The notes under the pieces: generated by a model
Databases searched by the model: none
Told to the model about the DNA's origin: nothing
The model's input: only the letters and a program-made list of their open reading frames with translations
Part shown: positions 3,694-58,744 of the stretch, one piece after another
How positions within the stretch are numbered: the stretch's first letter is position 1
Layout: the number at the start of each line of letters is the position of its first letter
Position numbers and translations under genes: made by a program
Source of the DNA: Candidatus Ratteibacteria bacterium
GTDB taxonomy: Bacteria > CAZDME01 > JAYEMH01
NCBI GenBank assembly: GCA_034717985.1
Contig: JAYEMH010000039.1
Location: 1,784 to 65,783 of the forward strand
Direction of reading: 5' to 3'
DNA length: 64,000 nucleotides

Positions 3694-4872
3694 CTACACA
3701 AGTGCGCTTAAGAACTTACTGGCGCTTATAACCCGAATATTATCCTTTATGAAATCAATGTTCCCTTCTTTCACCACCTCATAGATAAAGGGAATTTTAA
3801 GTTTCTCGCCAAAATATTTTAATGACGCCGGGATATCCTTATAGGTCGCCTTAACCTCAACACAAAACCAAACCTTGTTTCCAACCGTAATTAAAAAATC
3901 AACTTCCCTCTGTTCTTTGTCTCTCAGATAATACAGTTGAGCTTTATATCCTTCTGCGTCAAAAAGAAAGTGGCAAAATTTCAAAAGATGAGAGGCAATA
4001 ATATTTTCAAACCTGACATTTTCGTCTCCAATTTCAGACCAGTCCCACAAATACAACTTGGGTTCTTTTCTCAACGACTTTATAACATTAGTTTGAAAAG
4101 GATATATTCGGAAATGATAATAGAACTGTTCTAATATATCTACCCACAAAGATACTGTCTTATGGGTAACCCCTAAGTCTTCACGTAATGAATTCAAAGA
4201 AAAAAGAGACCCGGTTTTCCCTGGCAAAAGCTCAACTAACACCTGCAGGGCTGATATATCCCTTAGATTTTCAATATCCCGAATATCATCCTTTATGACC
4301 CTGTCAATTCTGGCGTTATGCCACCGTCGCAGCGTTTTCTCGCTTTGTTTGATAAATATTTCCGGGAAGCCGCCGAATTTAAATAAACGATTAAATAATT
4401 TCTTCTGCTGTGTATTTTCATCTGAGAAAACAAGTTCTTTGAAAGGATTACAAATTATCTCCGTGCTTGATAATTCGTGCAGGGAAAGAGGATGCAGCCT
4501 ATACGGATGATACCGGCCCAGCAATGAATCTCCACCTTTCTTATACACATCCAATCGTGCGCTGCCCGTTACCAGTATCTGAAATTCCTGTTTGTGCTTG
4601 TCATATTCCCCTTTTAAATAATTCTTCCATTTTCTATATTTATGAATTTCGTCAAAAACAATCAAATCTTTATCCGCCGGGAAGCTCTCGTTAAGAATAA
4701 GCTTTCTGTCTTGTCGATTATCCCAATTTAAATAGGCATATTTACCTGGAAAAAACTTATTGCTGATTTGTTTAGCCAGAGTAGTTTTGCCAATTTGGCG
4801 GGGGCCGGAAATAAAAACCATTTTATCCTTCAAATCATCCAAAACGTACTTTTCTAAATATCGCTTAATCAT
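3694..4872 (-). CDS. AAA+ ATPase, DUF4143 family (second copy, diverged)
   Basis: Walker A GPRQIGKTT, Walker B LIVFDEIHK; same architecture as 518..1807. Confidence 0.7.
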   Translation of the reverse strand: MIKRYLEKYVLDDLKDKMVFISGPRQIGKTTLAKQISNKFFPGKYAYLNWDNRQDRKLILNESFPADKDLIVFDEIHKYRKWKNYLKGEYDKHKQEFQILVTGSARLDVYKKGGDSLLGRYHPYRLHPLSLHELSSTEIICNPFKELVFSDENTQQKKLFNRLFKFGGFPEIFIKQSEKTLRRWHNARIDRVIKDDIRDIENLRDISALQVLVELLPGKTGSLFSLNSLREDLGVTHKTVSLWVDILEQFYYHFRIYPFQTNVIKSLRKEPKLYLWDWSEIGDENVRFENIIASHLLKFCHFLFDAEGYKAQLYYLRDKEQREVDFLITVGNKVWFCVEVKATYKDIPASLKYFGEKLKIPFIYEVVKEGNIDFIKDNIRVISASKFLSALV

Positions 4873-5235: not shown

Positions 5236-5625
5236 TCAAAGTCTATCTTTGAGTTTTATTAGTATCTTGTCCATCAATTCGAAATAACCTTTTATACCTT
5301 TATAAATTTTTTGCGCAACTTCTTCCTTGTAAGTATGAGATGTATCATTCCTTCTATCAGTCATTTCCTGAAGCTCAACCGTCTCATCTTCGGTAGAATA
5401 ACCTAATGAGAAAATTTCCCGGAAACACGTTTTCGGGGAATTACCGATAACACCCTCTTTTTCTTTGAGATACTCCTTAATAAACTTCCAAAAGGCCTCA
5501 AAAGAATATTCAAAACGCTGAATGGCGGCATCCCGGATAATTATTGAAAACGGTTCGTCGAATATTTTTTTTAATGTATCTAAAGCCTTCTGCGCATCTT
5601 TATATTTCAACTTTAATCTTTCCAT
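5236..5625 (-). CDS. HEPN-domain nucleotidyltransferase substrate-binding protein (HI0074 family)
   Basis: RRNDTSH matches the HEPN Rx4-6H motif; overlaps the upstream NTase gene by 13 nt (coupled pair). Confidence 0.6.
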   Translation of the reverse strand: MERLKLKYKDAQKALDTLKKIFDEPFSIIIRDAAIQRFEYSFEAFWKFIKEYLKEKEGVIGNSPKTCFREIFSLGYSTEDETVELQEMTDRRNDTSHTYKEEVAQKIYKGIKGYFELMDKILIKLKDRL

Positions 5626-5906
5626 ACAATCACCCCTTTCATTGCCTCTTTCTTAAAAGACTCTGAAACGTCTGCAAAAGTTACGATTTCCACTTTATAA
5701 GGAATATTCAAATCTTCTATTTTCTCGTTCAGTGAAATAATCTTTTTCTTATCAATATCCTCATAAGGAATAAGCCCGATGTCTACATCAGAGGTAGGAT
5801 GGTTATCTCCTCTGGCGCGCGAGCCAAAAAGCACTATCTTTACTCTTTCATCTTTTAATGTGTTTAACACTAATGCTTTTAATTTTGCTAAATACCTGTT
5901 TTCCAC
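5613..5906 (-). CDS. minimal nucleotidyltransferase (HI0073/MntA-like)
   Basis: GSRARGDNHPTSDVDIGL: GS...DxD pol-beta NTase signature. Confidence 0.65.
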   Translation of the reverse strand: MENRYLAKLKALVLNTLKDERVKIVLFGSRARGDNHPTSDVDIGLIPYEDIDKKKIISLNEKIEDLNIPYKVEIVTFADVSESFKKEAMKGVIVWKD

Positions 5907-6115: not shown

Positions 6116-6532
6116 CTATAAAAATCTCTCAGTTATCTTAGTTAATATCATTTGTATATCGCCTTTCCCTTTAGTAAAAATAGAATATACCACATTTTTA
6201 TTAAGAGCTATATACTCATGCCCGACGATGTTTCGAAACCCAATCATTTTTTTCAATAATTCAAAATCATTACTGTCTAATATGCCTTTATCACCAAGCA
6301 TCTTTGCCGCTTCATAAGCCGTCTGCGGAAATCCATACCCTTCGTCCACCACTATATGCTGAATAATATCTATTAAGTGGTTTACTATCTGAAAAAGATT
6401 GTATTCGATGACGTCCTGAGTCTTCCCATCTTTTAAAAAATCCTCATAAGAAAGTCCACCATAGGCAGAAATTCGTTGAAAATGTTCCTCTATTTGCTTT
6501 ATTCTGCTCACTATAACGTCTTTATCCACCAT
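6116..6532 (-). CDS. hepT: HepT/DUF86 HEPN toxin
   Basis: RNIVGHEY HEPN motif near C-terminus; overlaps upstream mntA-like gene. Confidence 0.65.
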   Translation of the reverse strand: MVDKDVIVSRIKQIEEHFQRISAYGGLSYEDFLKDGKTQDVIEYNLFQIVNHLIDIIQHIVVDEGYGFPQTAYEAAKMLGDKGILDSNDFELLKKMIGFRNIVGHEYIALNKNVVYSIFTKGKGDIQMILTKITERFL

Positions 6533-6914
6533 AGCTATACCTCCTTTTGACTCTTGATATCTTCAATTCTCTTAAAGTGCGTGCGTCGTCATATGAATAG
6601 TAATTTCTGAAATAATCCCTTTTAAGATTCTCCTGCTTGTTAACCAAAAGCGGCTGGCCATGGGAAAATGCCTTTAAAACAAGTTCAGGGGGAGACTCAT
6701 TGGCCATAACTATATCTATCTTTCTTTTCAAAACCAGCGCTAATTCTGCGGTTAAATCATTTTTCTCAGGCGCATCTAAATTCCCCCCGATTAAAATATC
6801 TACATCACTTTCCCGAAGGGGTGTTTTAAGAGCAGAGCCAAACATAAAGGCATAATCAATCTTTTTGAATTTAGACAGAATTTTTCTGGCTTCTTCGATA
6901 TATTTTTCAGTCAT
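6522..6914 (-). CDS. mntA: MntA-type nucleotidyltransferase antitoxin
   Basis: FGSALKTPLRESDVDILI NTase motif; partner of adjacent HepT. Confidence 0.65.
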   Translation of the reverse strand: MTEKYIEEARKILSKFKKIDYAFMFGSALKTPLRESDVDILIGGNLDAPEKNDLTAELALVLKRKIDIVMANESPPELVLKAFSHGQPLLVNKQENLKRDYFRNYYSYDDARTLRELKISRVKRRYSYGG

Positions 6915-6957: not shown

Positions 6958-7878
6958 TCAAAAATTCCGGGGTCTGGTCTCAACATTTAACAAATTATAC
7001 CCTTTTATTATACTGCCGCAAACCATCTGGACCATATCGCTAAATTCTCCCATATCGCCTTTCCCTAAAGCAAGATAGTATTTATGGCGGTCATCTATCT
7101 GAATTATGGCCGGCGGGTAGCCTTTACTCAACAACTGGGTGATTAGAATCAAGCGGCCTACCCGGCCGTTTCCATCAAAAAAGGGATGGATGGCTTCAAA
7201 CTCATAATGGTCATTTGCTGCTTTACCAACAATATCCTTACCGTACCGATTGACATTGGATACAAACTTTTTCATCTTTATCGGAACCATCTGGGCTGAG
7301 GGAAGCGCCTTCTCGGTATTGGTAAGATTAACATAACCGGTCCTATATTTTCCCGGAAGCTTATTGTTGAAATTATACATCACTATAGAATGAAGCTTTA
7401 AGATATATTCTTCGTCAATTTTAAAGTTGGGTTTTATTCGCTCAAAGATAAATTCCAGGGCGTTTCTGTGATTTACTGCCTCTAAAACCTCAAAAAGATT
7501 TTTGCCTTTCACCTTTTCACCCTTAAATGCCTTCTCTGTCTCCCGGCGGGTCATTCGGTTCCCTTCAATGGCGTTGGAATTATAGGTCATCTCGAGACAG
7601 AATTTCTCCTGAATGGTTTTATTGCTTTTTAAGATTTTTATCGGGTTGCCCAGGTCATTTTTGAACCGGCGGATATACTCTCTTAAATCAACATGCTCTT
7701 TAAACAATTCGTCAATTTTATGAACTCGGGCCGGATGCGGTTTAATCCCCTTATCCAGCCAGCGGTAAACTGTTTTATAAGTAACCTCCATGAGTCTGGC
7801 CAATTCAGATCTGGATATCTTAGTCTGCTCAACGATTTTCCTTAACTTCTCGTTATCGGCAATTATTGCCTTTTTCAT
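6958..7878 (-). CDS. Fic/Doc family AMPylation-type protein with N-terminal HTH
   Basis: Canonical Fic motif [13 protein letters not shown]; N-terminal [23 protein letters not shown]; C-terminal residues run into the cassette junction motif. Confidence 0.8.
6977..7013. repeat. cassette junction motif copy overlapping the 3' end of the Fic gene
   Basis: The Fic ORF C-terminus ...GYNLLNVET is encoded by the motif. Confidence 0.7.
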
Positions 7879-9219: not shown

Positions 9220-10521
9220 TTACTTTTTAGCAAATTTCTCCCAATTATAAACAACAATCTCTCTTAAATCATTCCAATCCAATTTCTTCTTCCTATATTC
9301 CCTCGGAATCACCGGAAGATGCCGTAGCACAAAATCCATCTTCTTTTTTTTACTGTGGACTATGGACTGCCGACTGTCGACCATACAATCATAGTTTACA
9401 TAAACTCCCATCCCGCACATCCATGCCAACATTTTCGGCGACCCTTTAAAAATCAATCTCACCGCCCGAAATAACGAAAAATTTCCGCTTTTCTCCTGAT
9501 ATAAAATCAACTTACACCAGCCTTTAATCTTATATTTTAGCCTTTCTCTTTTTAAATTTAACTTCGCCAGCTCTCTGTAGTCTGCAATCTGTGGTCTGTG
9601 GTCTGTGGACTGTCGACTGCCTGCCCTGAGCGAAGTCGAAGGGTGGACTATTTGAAACTTCCCGCTCTCCCACAGCCAGATATCTTTATAATAATTTCTT
9701 AGTTTTTCCCATTCTTTCAATACTTCTTTGCGGCTTTTAAATAACAAATCCTCTTTCGGATTCAATTTAAAATCCATCCATTTCCTAATCTTTTCCATTA
9801 AAGGGGAGGAGGATGGTATCGGGGTGTAATCAAGCCGGTTCATTTGGGCCAACATATTTTTATAAAGCGGTTCATATTTGCCTTCGGCAATTAAAATAGA
9901 AGAGGCAAGATTAACATAGCCCTTACAAATTTGGTAGGTTTGCGTGGGCATTATCCCCTTCTTATCTCCAAATATTTCTTTTAATTGCTCTAAGGCCCGG
10001 TTAAAAATAACCACCATTGATTCTTCCTTTTTGATATCATCCCTTTTATAATCAGGGACTACATCTAAAATCTTCCGGTTTCCCCATACCACCTTGCCGT
10101 AGTTCTTTAATTCGTAGGTAAAAGCGGTTGGGGGCATTTTTGTTAAAGACTTTTCTAAAAAAAGACTTAAATCAACTTCAAGATCAAATTCTTCTTCTTT
10201 AAGCTTCCTTGAAACATTTATGCTGATTTGGTTCGGTTTATCTCTTAACATCCGATAATCTGCTTCTTTAGTTAATACAACTATGAATTCCGAATCGCTT
10301 AAAAATACCGGCCGATTATTTCTGTCAATATATACCGTTCCTTCTCCTTTGGAGAAACTGCCGATTAATATGACTGATTCTATATTCTGCCCGGATATAT
10401 TTTCAACGATAACCTCACAAACGTTTTTTAAAAAGTCTTGCACAACAAAATCATACGTCTTTATATTTAAGAATTTGTCTTTTAAAGATGTTTTTTCAGT
10501 TGCGGCTTTATTTTCTGCCAT
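9220..10521 (-). CDS. hypothetical protein, possible pol-beta-like nucleotidyltransferase domain; contains in-frame dispersed-repeat insertions
   Basis: LIGSFSKGEGTV...LSDSEF weakly resembles a GS...DxE NTase signature; two copies of the GTGGACT-type repeat inside the ORF translate in frame; 5' end overlaps udk. Confidence 0.3.
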   Translation of the reverse strand: MAENKAATEKTSLKDKFLNIKTYDFVVQDFLKNVCEVIVENISGQNIESVILIGSFSKGEGTVYIDRNNRPVFLSDSEFIVVLTKEADYRMLRDKPNQISINVSRKLKEEEFDLEVDLSLFLEKSLTKMPPTAFTYELKNYGKVVWGNRKILDVVPDYKRDDIKKEESMVVIFNRALEQLKEIFGDKKGIMPTQTYQICKGYVNLASSILIAEGKYEPLYKNMLAQMNRLDYTPIPSSSPLMEKIRKWMDFKLNPKEDLLFKSRKEVLKEWEKLRNYYKDIWLWESGKFQIVHPSTSLRAGSRQSTDHRPQIADYRELAKLNLKRERLKYKIKGWCKLILYQEKSGNFSLFRAVRLIFKGSPKMLAWMCGMGVYVNYDCMVDSRQSIVHSKKKKMDFVLRHLPVIPREYRKKKLDWNDLREIVVYNWEKFAKK

Positions 10522-25071: not shown

Positions 25072-25175
25072 TTCAAATTCACCTCCTTTTTAGTCGTTAG
25101 TCAGTAGTCGTTAGTATTTAGTTGTTTTTGCTTTCGCTAAATACTATTCACTAACAACTATTCACTATTCACGAG

Positions 25176-30770: not shown

Positions 30771-30881
30771 TGGTTTCTCCCTTTCCTAATAAAGTCCATA
30801 GACCACAGTTCTATTTTAGTCCATAGTCCATAGAGAAAGCAAAAAGATCTATCGACTGTGGACTGATAACTATGGACTATT

Positions 30882-33042: not shown

Positions 33043-33139
33043 TAAATTTTCTCCTCAGAAATAGGCTGTAGGTTATTGAACATAGGTTATAGGTTTTCTG
33101 CCTACTACCTATTACCTATCACCTTTAGCACAAAATTTA

Positions 33140-35260
33140 TTACTTGAACAATGAGTTTTTCAGTATAAAACTGGCAAAAACAATGGAAACCATAGACATT
33201 AGTTTAATTAAAATGTTCAGGGCCGGGCCAGCCGTATCCTTCAAAGGATCGCCTACCGTATCACCTACGACGGCCGCTTTATGGGCAAAGGTGCCTTTCT
33301 CTCCCTCTTGAGACTCAATCATCTTTTTGGCATTATCCCAGATACCGCCCGCGTTGGCCATAGTAATGGCTAAAGTAAATCCACAGATTAAGGCGCCGGC
33401 CAAAAGTCCGGCCACCGCCTCAACACCAAAAAGCAGGCCAATAAGTATCGGTGAAAGTATCGCGACCGCCGCCGGCAAAACCATCTCTTTCTGGGCCGCT
33501 CTGGTGCAAAGGTCGACACAGCGAGCATAATCGGCCTTTGCCTTGCCTTCCATTAAACCGGATATTTCTCTAAACTGACGCCGCACCTCTTCCACAATAC
33601 TGTAAGCTGTCCGTCCGACCGCCTTGATAGTCAAAGAGGAAAACAAAAAGGGAAGCATCCCGCCGATAAATAAACCGCAAATAACCGCCGGGTTCAGCAA
33701 TGATAAATTGATAGCCAGGGAAAGGTTTTCTCTGGTCATAATGATAATCAGCTCGTTACGATAAGCGGCAATCAAAGCCAGGGCCGTTAACGCGGCCGAA
33801 CCAATGGCAAATCCCTTTCCGGTTGCCGCGGTCGTATTGCCTAAAGCATCAAGGGCATCGGTCCGCTGGCGAACCTCCGGCGGTAAACCGGACATCTGGG
33901 CATTTCCTCCGGCATTATCCGCCACCGGGCCATAGGCATCGGTAGCTAAGGTCATTCCTAAGGTAGAAAGCATTCCCACAGCGGCAATACCCACTCCGTA
34001 AAGACCTAAATTGGGATTCTGGGCCCCGCCGGAAGCAAAATAGCTTATTAAAATAGCCAGGGCGACCGTTATAACCGGGATTGAAGAAGCGAGCATTCCC
34101 CAGGCTAAACCGTTAATAATGGTTACCGCCGGCCCGCTCCGGGCTGACTGAGCAACCTGACGAGTCGGTGAATAACGGCTGGAGGTAAAAAATTCCGTTG
34201 AAACTCCGATAATTAATCCGGCCAGAAGTCCGGTCAAAACTGCCCAGTAGATATTAAAAAATTGACTTCCCAAAACAAACCTGATTAAAAAGTAAGCGCC
34301 GCCGGCAACCAAAATGGCGGTGCTAAAAATACCCCGGCGCAAAGCTTTAAGCAGGACAGCCGCCTCTGCTTTATCCCCGGCTTTAATAAAAAACGTCCCG
34401 ATAATCGAGGCAACAACTCCAATAGCCGCCATCAGCATCGGGACAACCAATCCATAAATGCCTAAACCGGCCGCCACGCCTAAAGCGGCCGCCGCCACAA
34501 TGGTGCCAACGTAAGATTCGTAAAGATCGGCACCCATTCCGGCGACATCACCAACATTATCTCCGACGTTATCGGCGATAACAGCGGCATTCCTGGGGTC
34601 ATCTTCAGGAATATTCGCCTCGACTTTGCCGACTAAATCAGCGCCAACATCCGCTGCCTTGGTAAAAATGCCTCCGCCGACTCTGGCAAAGAGAGCCTGA
34701 AAACTCGCCCCCATACCGAAACAAAGCATGGTGCTGGTAATATATTGGATTTTTTGCGTTTTAAGAATTTCTCCGGCTAACACCTTTGCCTGATAGTACC
34801 AGTCCAGAAGGTAATACCAGATACTCAAATCCAAAAGCCCTAAACCGACCACCAATAGACCCATCACTGCCCCGCTGGAAAAAGCCACCTTTAAGCCCTG
34901 GTTAAGGCTGAATCTGGCCGCCTGAGCAGTCCTTCCGCCCGCCTGGGTAGAAATTTTCAAACCCAAAAAACCGGCTAGCCCTGAGAAAAAACCGCCGGTT
35001 AGAAAAGCAAACGGCACAAAAATAACCAGGTAACCCCGCCAGGCCAGAAAAAGCAGTACTAAAAACATAAAAGCAAAAAATATTCCGACGACAGAGTACT
35101 GCCTTTTTATATACGCCAGAGCGCCCTCTTTAACCGCCTGGGCAATTTCCTTCATCTTCGGGGTGCCTTCGTCTTTTTTCATAACGTAGCGAGTGAGAAA
35201 AGCGGCAAAAATCAAAGCCGCTATCGAACCAACAAAAGCCAGCCAAATTAGGTTAACCAT
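33140..35260 (-). CDS. hppA: membrane-bound proton/sodium-translocating pyrophosphatase
   Basis: GADLVGKVE and DNVGDNVGD signature motifs, ~16 TM, 706 aa. Confidence 0.9.
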
Positions 35261-35301: not shown

Positions 35302-35451
35302 TTAAACTTTATCCGGCGAAATAAGAACAGTCTTACCGTTCTTCCAAATAGCAAGAGGACGGCCTGTTTTTTTGTGTCGAGCCACTACTCCTTTCACAGC
35401 TTCTTTCAGGGCAAGCATTGCTTTATCCTGCAAAGACATCCTTTTTTTCAT
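35302..35451 (-). CDS. small basic hypothetical protein (49 aa), possible cognate partner of upstream zeta-like kinase (not in ORF track)
   Basis: Own translation MKKRMSLQDKAMLALKEAVKGVVARHKKTGRPLAIWKNGKTVLISPDKV; ATG lies 5 nt after the zeta-like gene stop. Confidence 0.25.
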   Translation of the reverse strand: MKKRMSLQDKAMLALKEAVKGVVARHKKTGRPLAIWKNGKTVLISPDKV

Positions 35452-35455
35452 AAAT

Positions 35456-36034
35456 TTACCTCGCTAATAATTTTATTTTTTCAAATAACCCTTGATGGAT
35501 TATTGAAACCTGCCCATTTTTTGTTTTTGCTATTAATGTTGGGATAGATCCGGCATTATCAAACAGCATCCACGAATCAAGTAAAGGCTGGTATAATTTA
35601 AAAAAGTTGCAGATCGACCTTTTAAAACGTCTTCTCACATCTTGCGCCGGAACATTGTGCCCACCGTATGAAATCCGATCCTTAATACGGGCTATAGCCA
35701 GCTCTTCATCCGGAATCCACAAAAAGAATAGGTGAAGCTTGTACCCTTTTGTTCTTAATTCCTTGAAAAAATTAACATATGATTTACCTGCAAGTGTTGA
35801 TTCAAATGAAAAATCTATCCCGGCCCTAGCAAATTCATGAATTTGACTTAGAACAAGTTTTCCTGCTTTAATGGCTTCGCTTCGAGGAGAAAAGGGCGAA
35901 AGTCCTTGCGCGATAAGATCCGCATTGACAAAATTTGGACATTTTGCATAGTTAGGCAAAAATTCCTTAGCAAAGGTTGTTTTACCTGAACCATTAGGTC
36001 CCGCTATTATGTAAACGTTTTTATAGTTCTTCAT
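35456..36034 (-). CDS. zeta-toxin/AAA_33-like P-loop kinase
   Basis: IIAGPNGSGKTTFAKEF Walker A, ~190 aa compact kinase fold resembling zeta toxin/COG4185. Confidence 0.55.
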   Translation of the reverse strand: MKNYKNVYIIAGPNGSGKTTFAKEFLPNYAKCPNFVNADLIAQGLSPFSPRSEAIKAGKLVLSQIHEFARAGIDFSFESTLAGKSYVNFFKELRTKGYKLHLFFLWIPDEELAIARIKDRISYGGHNVPAQDVRRRFKRSICNFFKLYQPLLDSWMLFDNAGSIPTLIAKTKNGQVSIIHQGLFEKIKLLAR

Positions 36035-36124
36035 TTGTCTTATGTTTATTGTTTGTCGTCTGTGGTCTATTATCTGTGGTCAGCGGTCTATCTTTTTGTC
36101 TATCCGTGTTTAATGGCTGCCGAG

Positions 36125-36198
36125 CTAGGACTCGAACCTAGAAACCGGGCTCCAAAAACCCGTGTGTTGCCATTACACTACTCGGCAGTTAAATCCGT
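36125..36198 (-). tRNA. tRNA-Gln (anticodon UUG), CCA encoded
   Basis: Hand-folded cloverleaf: acceptor UGCCGAG/CUCGGCA with U1:A72 and G73 (GlnRS identity elements), D arm GUGU/ACAC, anticodon stem CGGGU/GCCCG with loop UUUUGGA, T arm CUAGG-UUCGAGU-CCUAG, 3' GCCA. Confidence 0.8.
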
Positions 36199-36283
36199 AT
36201 TTCGTGAATCGTAATTCCTGAATCGTTTTTAACATCTTACTATTCACTATTCACCATCCACTATTCACCGTTTTTAAGAACGT

Positions 36284-36370
36284 TGATTCTATTAAACCTA
36301 TTCATTGCTGCTTTCAGACCATGGCGGATAAAAACCTCTATTGGCAGGGTAATAAGTAAAAAGGGGTAGG
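36284..36370 (-). pseudogene. diverged duplicate of the pth 3' end (encodes ...IEVFIRHGLKAAMNRFNRINVL-like peptide)
   Basis: 24-bp exact match GATTCTATTAAACCTATTCATTGC plus ~65% identity over a further ~60 bp to pth codons at 37084-37170. Confidence 0.6.
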
Positions 36371-36390
36371 TTCTATCAAACCTAAAATCT

Positions 36391-36735
36391 TTAATCAAAT
36401 TCCCCAACCTCCACTTTTAGTATTTTAGCCTTCAAATCAAAAATATCCTCTTTAATAACCTTCCAAGTTCGCTCTAAATTTACCCCAGAGTATTCGTGAA
36501 TAAGAATATCTCTCATTCCAGCAATCTTTTTCCATGGTATTTCAGGGTATTTTTCTCTGAATTCCAAAGGAATATTCTTTACCGCCTCACCTATAATTTC
36601 CAATCGTCTTAAAACAGCATCCTGTATCTGAGTATTTTCAAAAAAGTCATCCCCGGTAATTTCTTTTGTATATTCTTCTATTTTCCCGATGCAGTCCAAA
36701 ATATCCTCGATATATACCCGCATGTTTTTTTTCAT
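36391..36735 (-). CDS. hepT: HepT/DUF86 HEPN toxin
   Basis: [15 protein letters not shown] and RDILIHEY (Rx4HxY) HEPN motifs. Confidence 0.7.
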
Positions 36736-37019
36736 AGAATCGCCACCTGTTCTTTTAAAATCTTCTCCTTAAGAAGGGGCTTGATTGTATTGTACTCCAC
36801 CAAATCTACTCTTCTCCCTAACTTTTCTTCAATTTCCAGTTTAACCCCTACAAAATCGAGTAAGCTGATATCCTTCTCAATTTCTACCAATATATCAATA
36901 TCGCTATCCTCTCTCATCTCTCCTCGAACACAGGAGCCAAATAATCCTATTTTTTTCACCCCATAGCGCTGTAAAATTGGAAGAATTTTTCGCTTTATCT
37001 CATCTATGTTTTTCGTCAT
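36732..37019 (-). CDS. mntA: MntA-type nucleotidyltransferase antitoxin
   Basis: [22 protein letters not shown]. Confidence 0.7.
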
Positions 37020-37083
37020 ATCATCACCCTTAGAACATAGCGACTATTGATTTTCCCTCTGTGGTTAAATTCTTTGCCTGTGG

Positions 37084-37650
37084 TTAATTCAAAACATCGA
37101 TTCTATTAAACCTATTCATTGCCGGTTCAATGCCGTCGGTGATAAAGACTTCTATCGTCTGGATTATATAATCAATAAAAAAAGGTAAATCTCTTTTCTG
37201 CTTTTGGCTGAATTCAGCCAGCACATAATTACTCAACTCTCTTTTTTCCCCTCCCTCAACCCCCAATCGCAAACGTGGAAATTCACCCGTTCCTAACACT
37301 TCAATAATGGATTTTAACCCGTTATGCCCCCCGGCGGATCCCTTCCCCCGAAAACGCACTTTTCCCCAGGGAAGATTAACATCATCTACCACAACCAATA
37401 TATTTTTTAATTTTAAGCGAAACTTCTTGACTAATTGTTTAACTGTTCCGCCGCTTAAATTAACATAGGTAAGCGGCCTGGCTAAAATTACTGTTTCTTT
37501 TCCCATAAGAATCTTTCCCCACCGGGCCGAATAATCTTTCTTATCCAATTTAATTTCATGCTTTTTCGCCAGAGCCTCAACTGCTAAAAAACCAAAATTG
37601 TGCCGGGTCTTCCGGTAACGCGGCCCCGGATTCCCCAAGCCAACAATCAT
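37084..37650 (-). CDS. pth: peptidyl-tRNA hydrolase
   Basis: MIVGLGNPGPRYRKTRHNFGF; start moved to internal Met because the tracked N-terminal extension is translated repeat DNA. Confidence 0.85.
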   Translation of the reverse strand: MIVGLGNPGPRYRKTRHNFGFLAVEALAKKHEIKLDKKDYSARWGKILMGKETVILARPLTYVNLSGGTVKQLVKKFRLKLKNILVVVDDVNLPWGKVRFRGKGSAGGHNGLKSIIEVLGTGEFPRLRLGVEGGEKRELSNYVLAEFSQKQKRDLPFFIDYIIQTIEVFITDGIEPAMNRFNRIDVLN

Positions 37651-37747
37651 TTTCACAAATTCTTCTCCCTTTTTTAATCCATAGACCATAAAAAAGTCCA
37701 TAGTCCTCAGACCATAGTCCATAGAAAAAAAACAAAAAATCTATCCA

Positions 37748-45217: not shown

Positions 45218-45769
45218 TTATTGCTTCTGCATGCTTTGAATGAAAATCCGTCGGGCAAATTCCTTGAATTTAGGCTCCATTTTATTCAGGATGTCTTCGG
45301 CCTCATCCGGACTCAAAGAAAACTTATCAGGCAAAATCTTCTTAAAACGCCGCCGTAATTTCACCGCAATAATATGCGGATTCTCGTTTTCAAACTCCTG
45401 GCGGTCAATCTCCATAACATCTCCGATTGTATATATCCCCTTTTGATTATCAAAGGACAAATCAAGATTTTCAGATATTTTTAAAACCTTATTAAAAGAC
45501 CGCCCGGAGGAAATTGCCTTTTTGTCCCCTGAAAATTCGATCTTCTCCTTGGATTCTTCAGTCTTTGGTCGTGTCGCCTTTCTCCGGACATAAGGATTGG
45601 CTTTTATGAGGCTATTTATATCCTCCTTCCGAAAGCGGAGATTTCCCCCTATTTTATAAGCGGTAAGTCTGCCGCTTCGGAGGAAATTATAAATCTGGCT
45701 GCGGCTAATCTTTAAAATCCTTTCGACTTCTTTTCTGGTAAGCAGCTCTTCTATACTTGTATTAGGCAT
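45218..45769 (-). CDS. HTH_17 (excisionase/MerR-type) DNA-binding protein with ~120-aa C-terminal extension
   Basis: TRKEVERILKISRSQIYNFLRSGRLTAYKIGGNLRFRKEDI HTH; paralogous to the small ORF at 11096..11266. Confidence 0.5.
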   Translation of the reverse strand: MPNTSIEELLTRKEVERILKISRSQIYNFLRSGRLTAYKIGGNLRFRKEDINSLIKANPYVRRKATRPKTEESKEKIEFSGDKKAISSGRSFNKVLKISENLDLSFDNQKGIYTIGDVMEIDRQEFENENPHIIAVKLRRRFKKILPDKFSLSPDEAEDILNKMEPKFKEFARRIFIQSMQKQ

Positions 45770-46070: not shown

Positions 46071-46152
46071 CAAAATTCATACCTTCCACAAACTTTTCTA
46101 TACTTTCCATAGAGCCCGGAATATCTTGCAAATAAAGTTTATTGTTTCTCAT
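46036..46152 (-). pseudogene. hepT: truncated hepT (DUF86) N-terminal fragment, 38 codons
   Basis: Own translation MRNNKLYLQDIPGSMESIEKFVEGMNFERFKEDDKTSC* aligns to HepT N-termini (e.g. 36391..36735: [21 protein letters not shown]); ATGA overlap with mntA stop; reading frame runs into the duplicated pump-3' sequence. Confidence 0.5.
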
Positions 46153-46442
46153 AAATAGGCTGCCTCTTTCAGAATAGATTTTTTCAACTCTTCTCTTAAG
46201 GCTCTCTCTGGTACCACATCTACCTTCTGATTGAGTTTTTCTTCAAGGAATAAAGCCAGCCCCAAAAAATCAAAAAGGTCTGCATTTTCTTCAAATTCCA
46301 CAAGGATATCAATGTCACTACCCTTTTTTTGCTCTCCCTTTATAAATGAGCCGAAAAGCCCCAACCTTTTCACTTTATATTTCTTCATGATTTCTTCCCT
46401 TACCTGCTCAAGTAATCTTAGAATTTCTTCTTTTGACATCAT
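46149..46442 (-). CDS. mntA: MntA-type nucleotidyltransferase (orphaned antitoxin)
   Basis: [24 protein letters not shown]; start at internal MMSKEE. Confidence 0.65.
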   Translation of the reverse strand: MMSKEEILRLLEQVREEIMKKYKVKRLGLFGSFIKGEQKKGSDIDILVEFEENADLFDFLGLALFLEEKLNQKVDVVPERALREELKKSILKEAAYL

Positions 46443-46687
46443 CTCTTTGTCTCCGCAACAAAAATTAATCTGGAAATATTCAATTCTTAATGTGATAATC
46501 TGCCTCATTATCCCACAAAAAAAAAGAGAAGTCAATAAAAAAACCCCGTCGTAAAACGGGAGTTTTTTGAAACTTAGCCTCTTTCCAAACTATTTATTTG
46601 TTAAACCCTTTTTCACCTCTTTAAAAATGAATCTCCGTCTTTTAACTTAAACCTCAAGAAAACTTTCAACAGAATTTTCGTAAGGCC

Positions 46688-56092: not shown

Positions 56093-56272
56093 TTTCCCGC
56101 CACTCTATACAATTTATACGACGTTAAAACGAAGTATAGCATATATGTATGACTAAAACAAGGGGAAATTACGTTATATTGGAACCCACAATTTGGAAGG
56201 AACTGCCGGCAGGAAAAAAAGAAAATTTTACTATAGACTGTGGACTATGGACTATCGACTGTGGACTAAAAA

Positions 56273-58744
56273 CTACCCCATCACCACTTCTACCTGATAG
56301 GTTTTGCCGGGCCGGAAATTTCTGATAATGTTTCCCTTGATTTTTTTTCCGTTGACCAGAATTTCCTTCACCCCTTTTTGCGCTCCCCGGGGATTTTTAA
56401 TATGGATTTCAAAATTAGCTCCGCGAAAAGGGCGGCTGACACGGCATTCCTTCCATTCTTCAGGGAGACAGGGATCAATCAGCAAACCTTTGTAATCATG
56501 CTGAACACCGAGAATCCATTCGGTGGCGGCCATAAAATTCCAGCCGGCTGTTCCGGTAATCCAGGTAAATGCCCCTTCTCCATACCGATACGGATGCTCC
56601 GGGCCGATTAAATATTCGGCATAAGCATATGGTTCGGTTTTATAAAGTTCGTAATTATCTTGAGCATTGGGCATGATTTTTTTCATGCTTCGATAGGCAG
56701 TATTTCCTCTTCCGGCCATACAGTTAGCAACAGTCATAAAAGTAGCCGCGTGGCAAAAAACCGCCGCATTCTCTTTGGTCCCTTCGGAAAACATGGTCAT
56801 TCTTCCCAGGCGGGAATCATAGTTGGAATAGGCGGGATAAAACAAAGCATAACCGTATTTACCGTCTAAATATTTGTCGGTAGAGGCAATCAGTTTTTTT
56901 AAGCGTTCTCCTTTTGCCACCCCGCTTAAAATTGCCCAGCTCTGGGGATTAAGAAATATCTTACCAGCTTCGTTTTTACCCGCGCCGTAATTATATCCCT
57001 CGTCGGTAAATCCCCGGGAATACCATTGTCCGTCCCATGCAATTTTATTGATTTTCCCGCTCATAACCTCAGCCATATCGAGAAATGCCTCAGCCTTTGA
57101 TTTTTTGTTAATTAAATTTGCCAGTTCAGCCAAAATCTTGAGGGAACGCACTAGCGCCATCGCCAGCCAGACACTTTCTCCTTTATGTTTGATGCCGGCG
57201 GCATCAATACCGTCATTCCAATCAGCATGACCGATTAAAGGCAGTCCCCTTTCTCCGACGTCACTAAAGGTGAAATTTAAATTTTTCTCCAGGTGTTCGA
57301 ATAACGTTCCCGCCCCCTCTTTGGCAGCGCCGCCTTTCCAATTTCGATCGATTTCCCAACCTTTAATCCAGCAGTCCTTTAAATAAGGAATATGCTGGAG
57401 TAGAATTCCTTTGTCCCCGGTTTCCTTGATGTAAGAAGCAACCGTTGGCGTCAGCCATATCTGATGGTCTTTATTAGGACGGTGATTTGCCGGACCGGTT
57501 GTATCTGACCATCCCGGAGCCGAGGTGCCGTCCTGGCGAATAAGAGAAGCAATCTTTATTATTTTCTTGCGGGTCAACTCAGGGTCAATAGAAACAATTG
57601 ATTCGGCGTCCTGGCAGGAATCACGGTATCCCCGTCCGCCGGAACTTTCGTGGTAATAAGACGGTGAACGCGACCAAAAATTGCAGATATAAAGCTGATA
57701 TTTTACCCAGACGTTTACAATCTTATCAAAGTCTTTGTCAGGCGTTTCTACCCGCACGTTTCCCAATATTCTCTTCTGCCAGAGTTTCTTTACCTTTTCT
57801 AATTCTCTTTTCGCTTCATCTAAATCTCGATATTTATCTAAAAGTTTTTTTACATAAGCTGCCGCCTTGGGATATTGCCATGGGTGTCTTCCATCAATCT
57901 TCATATCGCCGCATAAGGTCTGTCCCATCACCACCACAAATTCTTTTGTCTCGCCCGGCTTTAATTTCAATTCATGTTTCAAGAGACCAATTCCATCCTC
58001 CCCCGAACAGAACTCGGAATTTTTAAATTTTCCCTCCCCTAAAAAAGCCGGATTAGCCTCTGTCCGGAATCGGCCCAGGCTGGATTCTTTCTGCGTGGCA
58101 CAGCCCTTAACCGGCAGACTGCCGGCAAAGAAAATCAGGTAAGGGTTGGGCTGAATATTCATATCGCCCCAGACAGCTGTTTTCCGGCCGAGAATTGAAT
58201 TTGTTTTTTTATCAAACCAAATGCGGTTATAAAGGTTCATAATGTTTCTATACCTGATTTCCATATGAAAATCCCCGATTAGCCATTCTACATAAGGGAA
58301 AACTTCTAAATTTTTAGGGCGTTTGGTGAGATTACTAATTTTAATGACCCAAACTTCGCAGGTATCTTTCCGGGGGACAAAATAGGTAAGTTCTGAACGA
58401 ATGCCATAGTAATTTGTTTCAACTGTTGTATACCCCAGGCCGTGACGGGCTTTGAAGGATTTGGGGGGAATTCTTAAAGGCTGGAAAGTGGCGCTCCATG
58501 ATTTCCGGGTATCTTTATCCCTGATAAAAAGATAACGGCCGGGACGGTCAATCTCCCAGTTCCCCTGTTCCCAGCGAAGAAGCCGGTCGTTACGGCAGTC
58601 CCTATAAAAGGAATAGCCGCCGCCGGCCTGAGAAATTATGGCGCAATAGTCTTCATTGGTTAAATAATTTATCCAGGGACGGGGAGGGGAGGGGTTTGTA
58701 ATAATAAACTCGGTTCCGTCTTTAGAAAAATGTCCGTATTTCAT
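56273..58744 (-). CDS. GH94 glycoside phosphorylase (cellobiose/cellodextrin/chitobiose phosphorylase family)
   Basis: N-terminus MKYGHF..PRPWINYL..SQAGGGYSFYRD and catalytic-region GHADWNDG match the cellobiose phosphorylase fold; 823 aa. Confidence 0.7.
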   Translation of the reverse strand: MKYGHFSKDGTEFIITNPSPPRPWINYLTNEDYCAIISQAGGGYSFYRDCRNDRLLRWEQGNWEIDRPGRYLFIRDKDTRKSWSATFQPLRIPPKSFKARHGLGYTTVETNYYGIRSELTYFVPRKDTCEVWVIKISNLTKRPKNLEVFPYVEWLIGDFHMEIRYRNIMNLYNRIWFDKKTNSILGRKTAVWGDMNIQPNPYLIFFAGSLPVKGCATQKESSLGRFRTEANPAFLGEGKFKNSEFCSGEDGIGLLKHELKLKPGETKEFVVVMGQTLCGDMKIDGRHPWQYPKAAAYVKKLLDKYRDLDEAKRELEKVKKLWQKRILGNVRVETPDKDFDKIVNVWVKYQLYICNFWSRSPSYYHESSGGRGYRDSCQDAESIVSIDPELTRKKIIKIASLIRQDGTSAPGWSDTTGPANHRPNKDHQIWLTPTVASYIKETGDKGILLQHIPYLKDCWIKGWEIDRNWKGGAAKEGAGTLFEHLEKNLNFTFSDVGERGLPLIGHADWNDGIDAAGIKHKGESVWLAMALVRSLKILAELANLINKKSKAEAFLDMAEVMSGKINKIAWDGQWYSRGFTDEGYNYGAGKNEAGKIFLNPQSWAILSGVAKGERLKKLIASTDKYLDGKYGYALFYPAYSNYDSRLGRMTMFSEGTKENAAVFCHAATFMTVANCMAGRGNTAYRSMKKIMPNAQDNYELYKTEPYAYAEYLIGPEHPYRYGEGAFTWITGTAGWNFMAATEWILGVQHDYKGLLIDPCLPEEWKECRVSRPFRGANFEIHIKNPRGAQKGVKEILVNGKKIKGNIIRNFRPGKTYQVEVVMG

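Follow-up and report, generated by a model that had tools for sequence, protein, structure and literature searches.

A mntA-hepT toxin-antitoxin module between pth and tRNA-Gln in a Ratteibacteria genome, bracketed by two divergent copies of the pth terminus

In the genome of a Candidatus Ratteibacteria bacterium, a toxin-antitoxin module of about 0.65 kb, mntA-hepT, has been acquired in the spacer between the peptidyl-tRNA hydrolase gene (pth) and tRNA-Gln, as an insertion that is both real and well bounded. The locus lies in a 64,000-nt stretch, called here the window (assembly GCA_034717985.1, contig JAYEMH010000039.1, positions 1,784 to 65,783 of the forward strand); coordinates are window positions, and all features of the locus are on the minus strand. 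The module stands between two copies of the pth 3' end, one completing the gene and the other truncated, which represent two alleles of the terminus that diverged while each was part of a working gene. A preliminary description, made from the sequence alone, had taken the duplicated end as the attachment-site (att) signature of an integrative element targeting the 3' end of pth. The duplication and the bracketing of the two genes stand, but the more proximal copy is colinear with the uninterrupted loci of relatives and shows no switch at the exact core that the two copies share. In overall meaning the locus is a clear but ordinary gene acquisition, one more toxin-antitoxin module beside a tRNA gene.

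The features of the locus, from the downstream to the upstream end, are:

33140-35260 (-), H+-pyrophosphatase (PPase) gene
35302-36034 (-), zeta-toxin-like kinase and its 49-aa partner
36114-36187 (-), tRNA-Gln(UUG) (anticodon ttg), a conserved neighbour that follows pth in every relative
36188-36268 (-), spacer between remnant and tRNA-Gln, with an ACTATTC x4.3 array at 36239-36268 and a 14-nt x2.2 repeat at 36196-36226
36261-36374 (-), repeat copy 2 (the remnant), a 5'-truncated pth 3' end, ..YPFLLITLPIEVFIRHGLKAAMNRFNRINVLKNGE plus stop, a second pth allele
36261-36407 (-), 48-codon open frame with a Pth-like ending
36285-36308, 24-nt exact core, copy 2
36366-36411 (-), unassigned DNA joining the truncated cassette to the part of the remnant that can be recognised as pth
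36391-36735 (-), hepT, predicted HEPN RNase toxin, 114 aa (PF01934, 5.6e-31)
36732-37019 (-), mntA, minimal nucleotidyltransferase antitoxin, 95 aa (PF01909, 2.6e-18)
37020-37056 (-), junction and leader before mntA
37057-37083 (-), 27 nt after the pth stop codon, CCACAGGCAAAGAATTTAACCACAGAG, common to the empty site of the closest relative, L088
37084-37185 (-), repeat copy 1, the last 33 codons and stop of the intact pth, PFFIDYIIQTIEVFITDGIEPAMNRFNRIDVLN plus stop, colinear with the L088 and L081 empty sites
37099-37122, 24-nt exact core, copy 1, encoding AMNRFNRI, a clade-conserved motif
37084-37656 (-), complete pth (PF01195, 5.7e-62; TIGR00447, 1.2e-53), its start set at the GTG common to L088
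37748-38473 (-), ribosomal protein L25 gene

In the direction of transcription the order is thus the complete pth end, 64 nt, the mntA-hepT cassette, some 20-45 nt, the 5'-truncated second pth allele, a spacer and tRNA-Gln. That the two pth ends bracket mntA and hepT and are followed by tRNA-Gln(UUG) had been described correctly, as had the diverged second copy with its 24-nt exact core, found again by repeat and tblastn searches. The repeat search aligns 36274-36354 with 37088-37168 (81 nt, 74% identical); if an in-frame 6-nt gap is allowed, the similarity reaches about 36261-36374 versus 37084-37185, the codon alignment pairing PFFIDYIIQTIEVFITDGIEPAMNRFNRIDVLN and stop with PFLL--ITLPIEVFIRHGLKAAMNRFNRINVLKNGE and stop. 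The Pth C-terminus used as a tblastn query matches 36276-36374 (57% identity over 35 aa, E 7e-8); a Pfam scan of the remnant peptide gave no match even at E <= 10. The core, GATTCTATTAAACCTATTCATTGC, is identical over all of its 24 nt at 36285-36308 and 37099-37122, within repeat arms that are otherwise only about 61-63% identical. A search for further copies, run over the window, returned these two alone, even with 3 mismatches allowed (0 expected by chance), so that the duplication is not a generic terminator motif recurring behind many genes.

Evidence for an insertion comes from the equivalent interval in other genomes. Five Ratteibacteria loci, obtained from metagenome-derived proteins, were available for comparison (Pth amino acid identity to the window in brackets):

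L088 (84%): pth, 130 nt, tRNA-Gln
L081 (79%): pth, 23-66 nt, tRNA-Gln, then PPase
L089 (69%): pth, 23-66 nt, tRNA-Gln, then PPase
L090 (59%): pth, 23-66 nt, tRNA-Gln, then PPase
L082 (62%): pth, 52 nt, tRNA-Gln, a zeta-like pair, then PPase

None of the five (0/5) has mntA-hepT between pth and tRNA-Gln; the empty site looked for in relatives was found at every one of these loci, with pth-to-tRNA-Gln spacers of 23-130 nt. Empty sites in all five suggest that the toxin-antitoxin pair was gained in this lineage or, less parsimoniously, lost in the others. The boundary on the pth side is sharp. Identity between the window and L088 is 87% at the nucleotide level over the whole of pth (whole-gene synonymous divergence, dS, 0.39), and the alignment continues past the stop codon for 27 nt, 26 of them identical (CCACAGGCAAAGAATTTAACCACAGAG versus CCACAGGAAAAGAATTTAACCACAGAG), before similarity stops abruptly at 37057/37056, which marks the insertion's left edge. 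Homology over this stretch beyond the core extends to L081, whose stop codon is mutated, giving a longer tail. By comparison with the closest empty site, the insertion spans 36188-37056, or 869 nt, somewhat more than the roughly 750 bp first estimated. A motif tried as a mark of insertion, AACCACAGAG, recurs in other intergenic spacers; it was rejected as a generic intergenic motif in these genomes. A scan of reference-genome contigs with Pth found nothing closer than 46% identity.

The distal pth end diverged inside a working gene, as a second allele, and is not a decayed local duplicate. The alignment of the two copies covers 30 codons, in which 24 of 90 nt have changed but 19 of 30 amino acids are kept (ratio of nonsynonymous to synonymous divergence, dN/dS, 0.24); one Leu codon has changed at two bases between them, synonymously. 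When random decay was simulated by placing 24 substitutions, amino acid identity this high had a probability of P = 0.010 and an untouched core one of P = 0.0002; together with the dN/dS ratio, the simulation points to two alleles. Compared over the same codons, the remnant has a dS of 0.84-0.97 to the window, L088 and L081, similar to the 0.72-0.84 among those three, and a raised dN of 0.22-0.30, versus 0.09-0.18 among them: a pattern that fits an orthologous terminus from the same subclade, later under relaxed selection. Outside the core, identity of the distal copy to each of the sampled relatives is only 55-63%, and the sequence after its stop codon is different. The locus thus has the form expected of an insertion-duplication, with one copy complete and in context, the other 5'-truncated and abutting downstream DNA, and the two diverged while functional rather than created as a fresh target duplication. 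The source lineage of the remnant is unsampled: a protein search with the 43-aa remnant peptide returned no candidate with enough shared words, and a metagenome scan with its open reading frame (ORF) returned generic pth ends only (<= 67% over 18 aa). A match obtained by extending the remnant upstream to the YVLAEF motif was not significant.

The copy contiguous with pth, by comparison, is simply the ordinary pth terminus, in ordinary context on both sides of the core: it is orthologous to the L088 and L081 empty sites before the core, after it, and for 27 nt past the stop codon, whereas the distal copy is divergent on both sides. A crossover at the core would have made each copy a mosaic, and no such switch between donor and recipient sequence is apparent there; colinearity of the contiguous copy with the empty sites through the core argues that no crossover took place at it. 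The core also has a simpler explanation. It encodes AMNRFNRI, the best-conserved stretch of the Pth terminus in this clade (the AMNRFN(RI) codon run), and the longest exact runs, at the same position, are 22 nt between the window and L088 and 14 nt between the window and L089, so that an att site is not needed to explain a 24/24 match. More generally, a diverged duplication of a gene end with an exact core is insufficient for calling an att site, since the core may consist of the best-conserved codons.

The inserted genes themselves belong to a widespread family. More than 100 HepT clusters at 75-87% identity were found in many phyla. Copies of the cassette that share 82-86% DNA identity with that of the window occur in an archaeal metagenome-assembled genome (L096), in Bipolaricaulota (L108), in Cloacimonetes (L113) and in others. 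Its GC content is 0.34-0.38, against 0.38-0.48 in the flanks. In nine other contexts the cassette is again a bare two-gene insertion between housekeeping genes, with no recombinase within several kilobases and no pth-like sequence in the flanks. No match to the cassette DNA was found among PLSDB plasmids or INPHARED phages, and viral contigs held only relatives at 46-47% identity. Family members share a conserved left end, GTTATATGAAATGGCGGAtAAGGTGATAAT-ATG, and a conserved right end, ..KILKVREELKENNG and stop, then TAAGATTTGCACyGCCGCTTCACATAACAGAG. Both are absent from the window copy, in which homology to the family runs only from about 37031-37036 to 36412. At the left junction only the last 12-17 nt or so (AAGGGTGATGAT, including the Shine-Dalgarno-like AAGGGTGA) match the family leader, and the conserved GTTATATGAAATGGCGG is missing; at the other end, homology stops at 36412, so that the last 7 codons of hepT (EVGEFD and stop) are non-cassette DNA and the window HepT lacks the usual C-terminal residues, about 10 in number. 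The cassette is thus promiscuous, and its ends are eroded in the window; with neither family end preserved, both junctions look illegitimate.

How, then, did it arrive? The possibility given somewhat better than even credence is that the cassette came in with DNA of a sister lineage, by a combination of homologous recombination and an illegitimate join or by a Campbell-type event, leaving two alleles of the pth terminus behind. The donor would be a related Ratteibacterium already carrying the cassette just downstream of its own pth. On the pth side the incoming DNA would have recombined homologously; on the other it would have been joined illegitimately, the join falling inside the 3' end of hepT on the incoming molecule and inside pth on the resident one. 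Such an event would be a homology-facilitated illegitimate recombination. A circularised fragment entering by a single Campbell-type crossover would leave the same arrangement, with the complete pth end where it normally lies and a 5'-truncated, now untranslated one beside the old spacer and tRNA-Gln. Homology-facilitated illegitimate recombination, in which one homologous crossover and one illegitimate join fix foreign DNA, and the related Campbell-type insertion-duplication are known from naturally transformable bacteria and from E. coli conjugation (PMC3240628). The present locus resembles those cases in having new DNA beside a homologous anchor, the anchor being duplicated when the join falls upstream of the homologous position; it differs in that the event is reconstructed from one natural genome and in that an essential gene supplied, with its end, the anchor that was duplicated. 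The earlier proposal that incoming DNA supplied a replacement pth terminus may be right in its topology, with the old end displaced downstream; if so, the route was recombination with the pth locus of a sister genome and not the site-specific cassette attached to the proposal, which finds no support here.

Which of the two ends is the newcomer is a separate matter, on which there is a modest lean toward the remnant as the displaced resident terminus. Its stop codon runs directly into the GAATAGTGAATAG (GTGAATAG) heptamer array, which occurs elsewhere in the window only behind a RadA-like gene at 25.16 kb (25143-25172) and in none of the relatives' loci; the lean exists because this array is typical of the genome and because a resident remnant requires no donor with a disrupted pth.

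Several observations weigh against acquisition from a sister lineage in this form. No donor lineage or relative with a filled site was found, and the route is reconstructed from a single genome. Of the two pth ends, the contiguous one has the greater similarity to L088 and L081 (0.79 and 0.78, against 0.69 and 0.70 for the remnant), which, read naively, makes the contiguous copy native and the remnant imported. Microhomology could not be demonstrated at the hepT/remnant junction, where 36366-36411 does not significantly resemble pth, either that of the window or those of the relatives (P >= 0.08). The 24/24 identity of the core is above that of real orthologues of similar divergence (19-22 of 24), which leaves a small residual probability for a crossover or short gene conversion there. 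Finally, when the informative sites of pth were scanned, the signs of mosaicism were ambiguous, the heterogeneity (Fisher P = 0.0007) being driven largely by the divergent post-stop sequence of L081. Within 37057-37656, the window falls with L088 over the first 200 nt and the post-stop sequence, and over the middle 300 nt it is L088 and L081 that group together (Fisher P 0.0007 to 0.004), a shift that may reflect either recombination among these lineages or uneven rates.

The alternative that takes the first of these similarities at face value keeps the intact pth end as the resident one and has the remnant, with or without the spacer, arrive with the cassette from the pth locus of a donor; homology would then have been anchored in tRNA-Gln or beyond, with the illegitimate join in the resident spacer after CCACAGAG. 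This is a tentative possibility, to be held with limited confidence. It accounts directly for a contiguous copy most like L088 and L081 and carrying their post-stop sequence; tRNA-Gln, nearly invariant among the lineages, could serve as the anchor; and identity ratios of pth to PPase with the relatives look vertical. But import of the remnant needs a donor with the cassette inside pth, directly upstream of its last 35 or so codons, which implies either a disrupted essential gene or an already duplicated locus, and the spacer on the remnant side has the heptamer array typical of this genome and seen in none of the relatives. A purely local origin is very improbable. If the pth 3' end had been tandemly duplicated in situ, no later than the insertion of the cassette, neutral decay of the redundant copy could in principle reach the 26-27% divergence observed in the time since the split from L088, as judged by the whole-gene dS, and perfect flanking duplications do occur in the cassette family (at L121, described below); this model was nonetheless rejected on the substitution pattern, in which purifying selection has left its signature (the low dN/dS, the synonymous two-base Leu change, an in-frame indel) and which random decay reproduces at the low probabilities given above, for the amino acids kept as for the untouched core.

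Genomic islands and cis-mobilizable elements (CIMEs) include tyrosine-integrase elements that enter the 3' end of tRNA or protein genes and restore the gene. As in these, gene-3'-end direct repeats flank the insert here, one copy completes the gene, and relatives have empty sites. A minimal, non-autonomous cassette of this kind, recombining site-specifically at the core, bringing its own replacement terminus and relying on an integrase in trans, is improbable, even though the exact 24-nt core within much less similar arms, core identity slightly above the orthologue level, the empty sites and a compact insert with its genes packed tightly between the repeats would all suit it. The core is not a switch point between donor and target, the sequence beyond it being orthologous to the L088 and L081 empty sites past the stop codon, and it is the clade's most conserved codon run; nor is the same target used elsewhere, the relatives of the cassette being at nine unrelated loci, none of them at pth and none with a pth fragment. 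The conserved ends of the family have been lost from the window copy. No recombinase was found in the element or in cis: the insert consists of mntA and hepT only, as had been noted at the outset, and a Pfam scan of 20 window ORFs of at least 183 aa detected no recombinase or transposase domain. Compared with islands and CIMEs, the locus thus lacks an integrase and a core crossover and has eroded cassette ends, and the family to which the cassette belongs has no preference for pth, so that a minimal integrative cassette consisting of a toxin-antitoxin pair alone, as originally suggested, is not borne out.

Integrons offer another comparison, since toxin-antitoxin cassettes and cross-domain transfer are documented for them (PMC9668308). 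Like integron cassettes, clusters of attC sites lacking integron integrases (CALINs) and lone attC sites (PMC9668308; PMC9024848), the family is a small, promoter-poor, one- or two-gene unit with toxin-antitoxin cargo spread across phyla and domains, and its ends look like recombinase boxes. The left end, GTTATATGAAAT.., and the right end, ..CTTCACATAAC, are imperfect inverted repeats (13/19, P ~0.02), and in L107-L111 a 97-nt hairpin (2102-2198) with 12-nt complementary arms, ATTTCGTATAAC...GTTATATGAAAT, immediately precedes the cassette (DNA fold z -4.2). This hairpin is attC-like or Xer-half-site-like, and the cassette's conserved left end forms its right arm. The L107-L111 contigs, from different samples, diverge downstream of the cassette within a strongly palindromic region. 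That the window cassette is of integron type, put into a secondary (non-attI) site by an integron integrase and later stripped of its attC and 5' end, with the pth remnant an unrelated rearrangement, is nevertheless quite improbable. The window copy has neither family end, ending inside hepT where an attC would be expected, and no complementary ATAAC...GTTAT arm pair occurs in the window; the scan for complementary arms found one site type only, that of L107-L111. The box sequences deviate from RYYYAAC/GTTRRRY. No paired site was found downstream of hepT in L094 or L113, which show no structure there, and the same region of L108 folds strongly with its ends unpaired. In contrast to integron cassettes, then, the family has one convincing hairpin site among its members, no attC demonstrable in the window and no IntI or other integrase in sight, and the pth remnant would be left unexplained.

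Acquisition by way of flanking homology, the route favored above, may have parallels elsewhere in the family. When the flanks of cassettes were aligned against each other, with shuffled controls, strong direct repeats were found around the cassette in the window (z 24), L094 (z 59) and L121 (z 99), and at none of six other loci. L121 (contig JASEHC010000011.1) has perfect 122-nt direct repeats of its upstream flank, at 4527-4648 and 5432-5553; its sister contig, L122, has the cassette without the second flank copy. When the two contigs are compared, the upstream gene has clearly diverged at its 3' end, as has the adjoining intergenic stretch, and the stretch from flank through leader to cassette is near-identical, a pattern that points to a very recent transfer or duplication. 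In L094 the cassette lies between two ~85%-identical copies of a unit with an 84-aa ORF (1176-1385 and 2103-2462), one of them internally deleted, a layout that resembles a small cassette array. Though short of proof, these cases suggest that the cassette often passes from one related genome to another along with some of its flanking DNA. A more ambitious reading, rather unlikely at present, is that mntA-hepT is a cross-domain mobile cassette of about 0.7 kb with inverted termini of ~17-19 nt resembling tyrosine-recombinase boxes (GTTATATGAAATGGCGG / CCGCCGCTTCACATAAC), which would land beside housekeeping genes and afterwards spread by flank homology, leaving duplicated host flanks as at pth, L121 and L094. 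If true, toxin-antitoxin genes would have a general means of spreading that needs no integrase. HEPN/MNT pairs are called mobile, but movement of a bare two-gene module without transposase or integrase has rarely been documented at the nucleotide level. The pth locus offers an acquisition that is dated and bounded, the site being empty in five relatives; a scar of recombination in which two alleles of an essential gene's terminus stand together; and a link to a cassette family whose archaeal copies and those of several bacterial phyla are about 85% identical in DNA.

The pair itself has the sequence hallmarks of a type VII HepT/MntA system, to which it can putatively be assigned. The signature motifs of such systems, RX4HXY and GSX10DXD (PMC7641770), can be read from the translations as R75-x4-H80-x-Y82 in HepT and G28-S29-x10-D40-x-D42 in MntA; mntA lies upstream of hepT on the same strand, and the two reading frames overlap by 4 nt. 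A profile built from homologues of HepT matches Shewanella HepT (5YEP/6M6U) at 3e-5, with the motif aligned to GLRNIAVHDY, and MntA matches the minimal nucleotidyltransferase PDB 1WOT at 3.6e-17. Scores against the NCBIfam equivalogs, 51.9 bits for HepT_toxin and 59.2 bits for MntA_antitoxin (NF047752, 2.9e-16), are near but under the 60-bit cut-off, so that the pair is best called HepT/MntA-like by sequence. The arrangement is that of Shewanella oneidensis SO_3166/SO_3165 (PDB 5YEP, 6M6U; PMC7641770), with mntA upstream and overlapping hepT and with PF01934 and PF01909 domains carrying both motifs; the similarity to that pair is distant, as the profile match indicates, and the window HepT is shorter at its C-terminus. 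HepT is predicted to be a HEPN RNase, which MntA would neutralise by adenylylating the tyrosine of RX4HXY. HEPN/MNT (minimal nucleotidyltransferase) pairs have been described as the most abundant prokaryotic toxin-antitoxin modules (PMC7641770). No terminator-like site was found between pth and mntA, which makes read-through possible, and the pair may be co-transcribed from the L25-pth operon.

An Rfam scan of the region matched the tRNA alone. On the far side of tRNA-Gln lies a zeta-toxin-like P-loop kinase (192 aa) with a 49-aa partner, found in the window (35302-36034) and in L082 (6782-7513), with 79% and 86% amino acid identity between the two, and absent from L081, L089 and L090. With this second pair present in some relatives and absent from others, both flanks of tRNA-Gln house variable toxin-antitoxin-like pairs. 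Elsewhere the window has further MNT/HEPN-type pairs, one of a 97-aa MNT protein with a 129-aa partner and one of a 130-aa MNT protein with a 138-aa DUF86-like protein, as well as a Fic-motif protein and a solitary MNT protein without HEPN partner, 47% identical to MntA and adjoining an HTH_17 (excisionase-type) protein; the coordinates of these additional features are 5236-5906, 6116-6914, 6958-7878, 46149-46535 and 45218-45769.

Another feature of the locus is the repeat array between the remnant and tRNA-Gln, which had been taken for hairpin repeats of the CTATTCAC type. It is instead a direct tandem array of period 7 (ACTATTC x4.3, 36239-36268), in which no inverted repeat was found. Short period-7 arrays of this kind directly follow stop codons in many spacers of this genome, of Ratteibacteria relatives and of a Cloacimonetes contig. 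The arrays listed are:

window: 9588-9613, 25090-25172, 30817-30833, 33101-33124, 36054-36089, 36239-36268, 37695-37724, 56230-56275
other contigs: L081 700-750; L082 6568-6618; L113 1896-1928

Their units (for example TCTGTGG, ACTATTC, AGTCCAT, ACTATGG, TAACGAA and CACAGAG) differ between lineages at the same locus.

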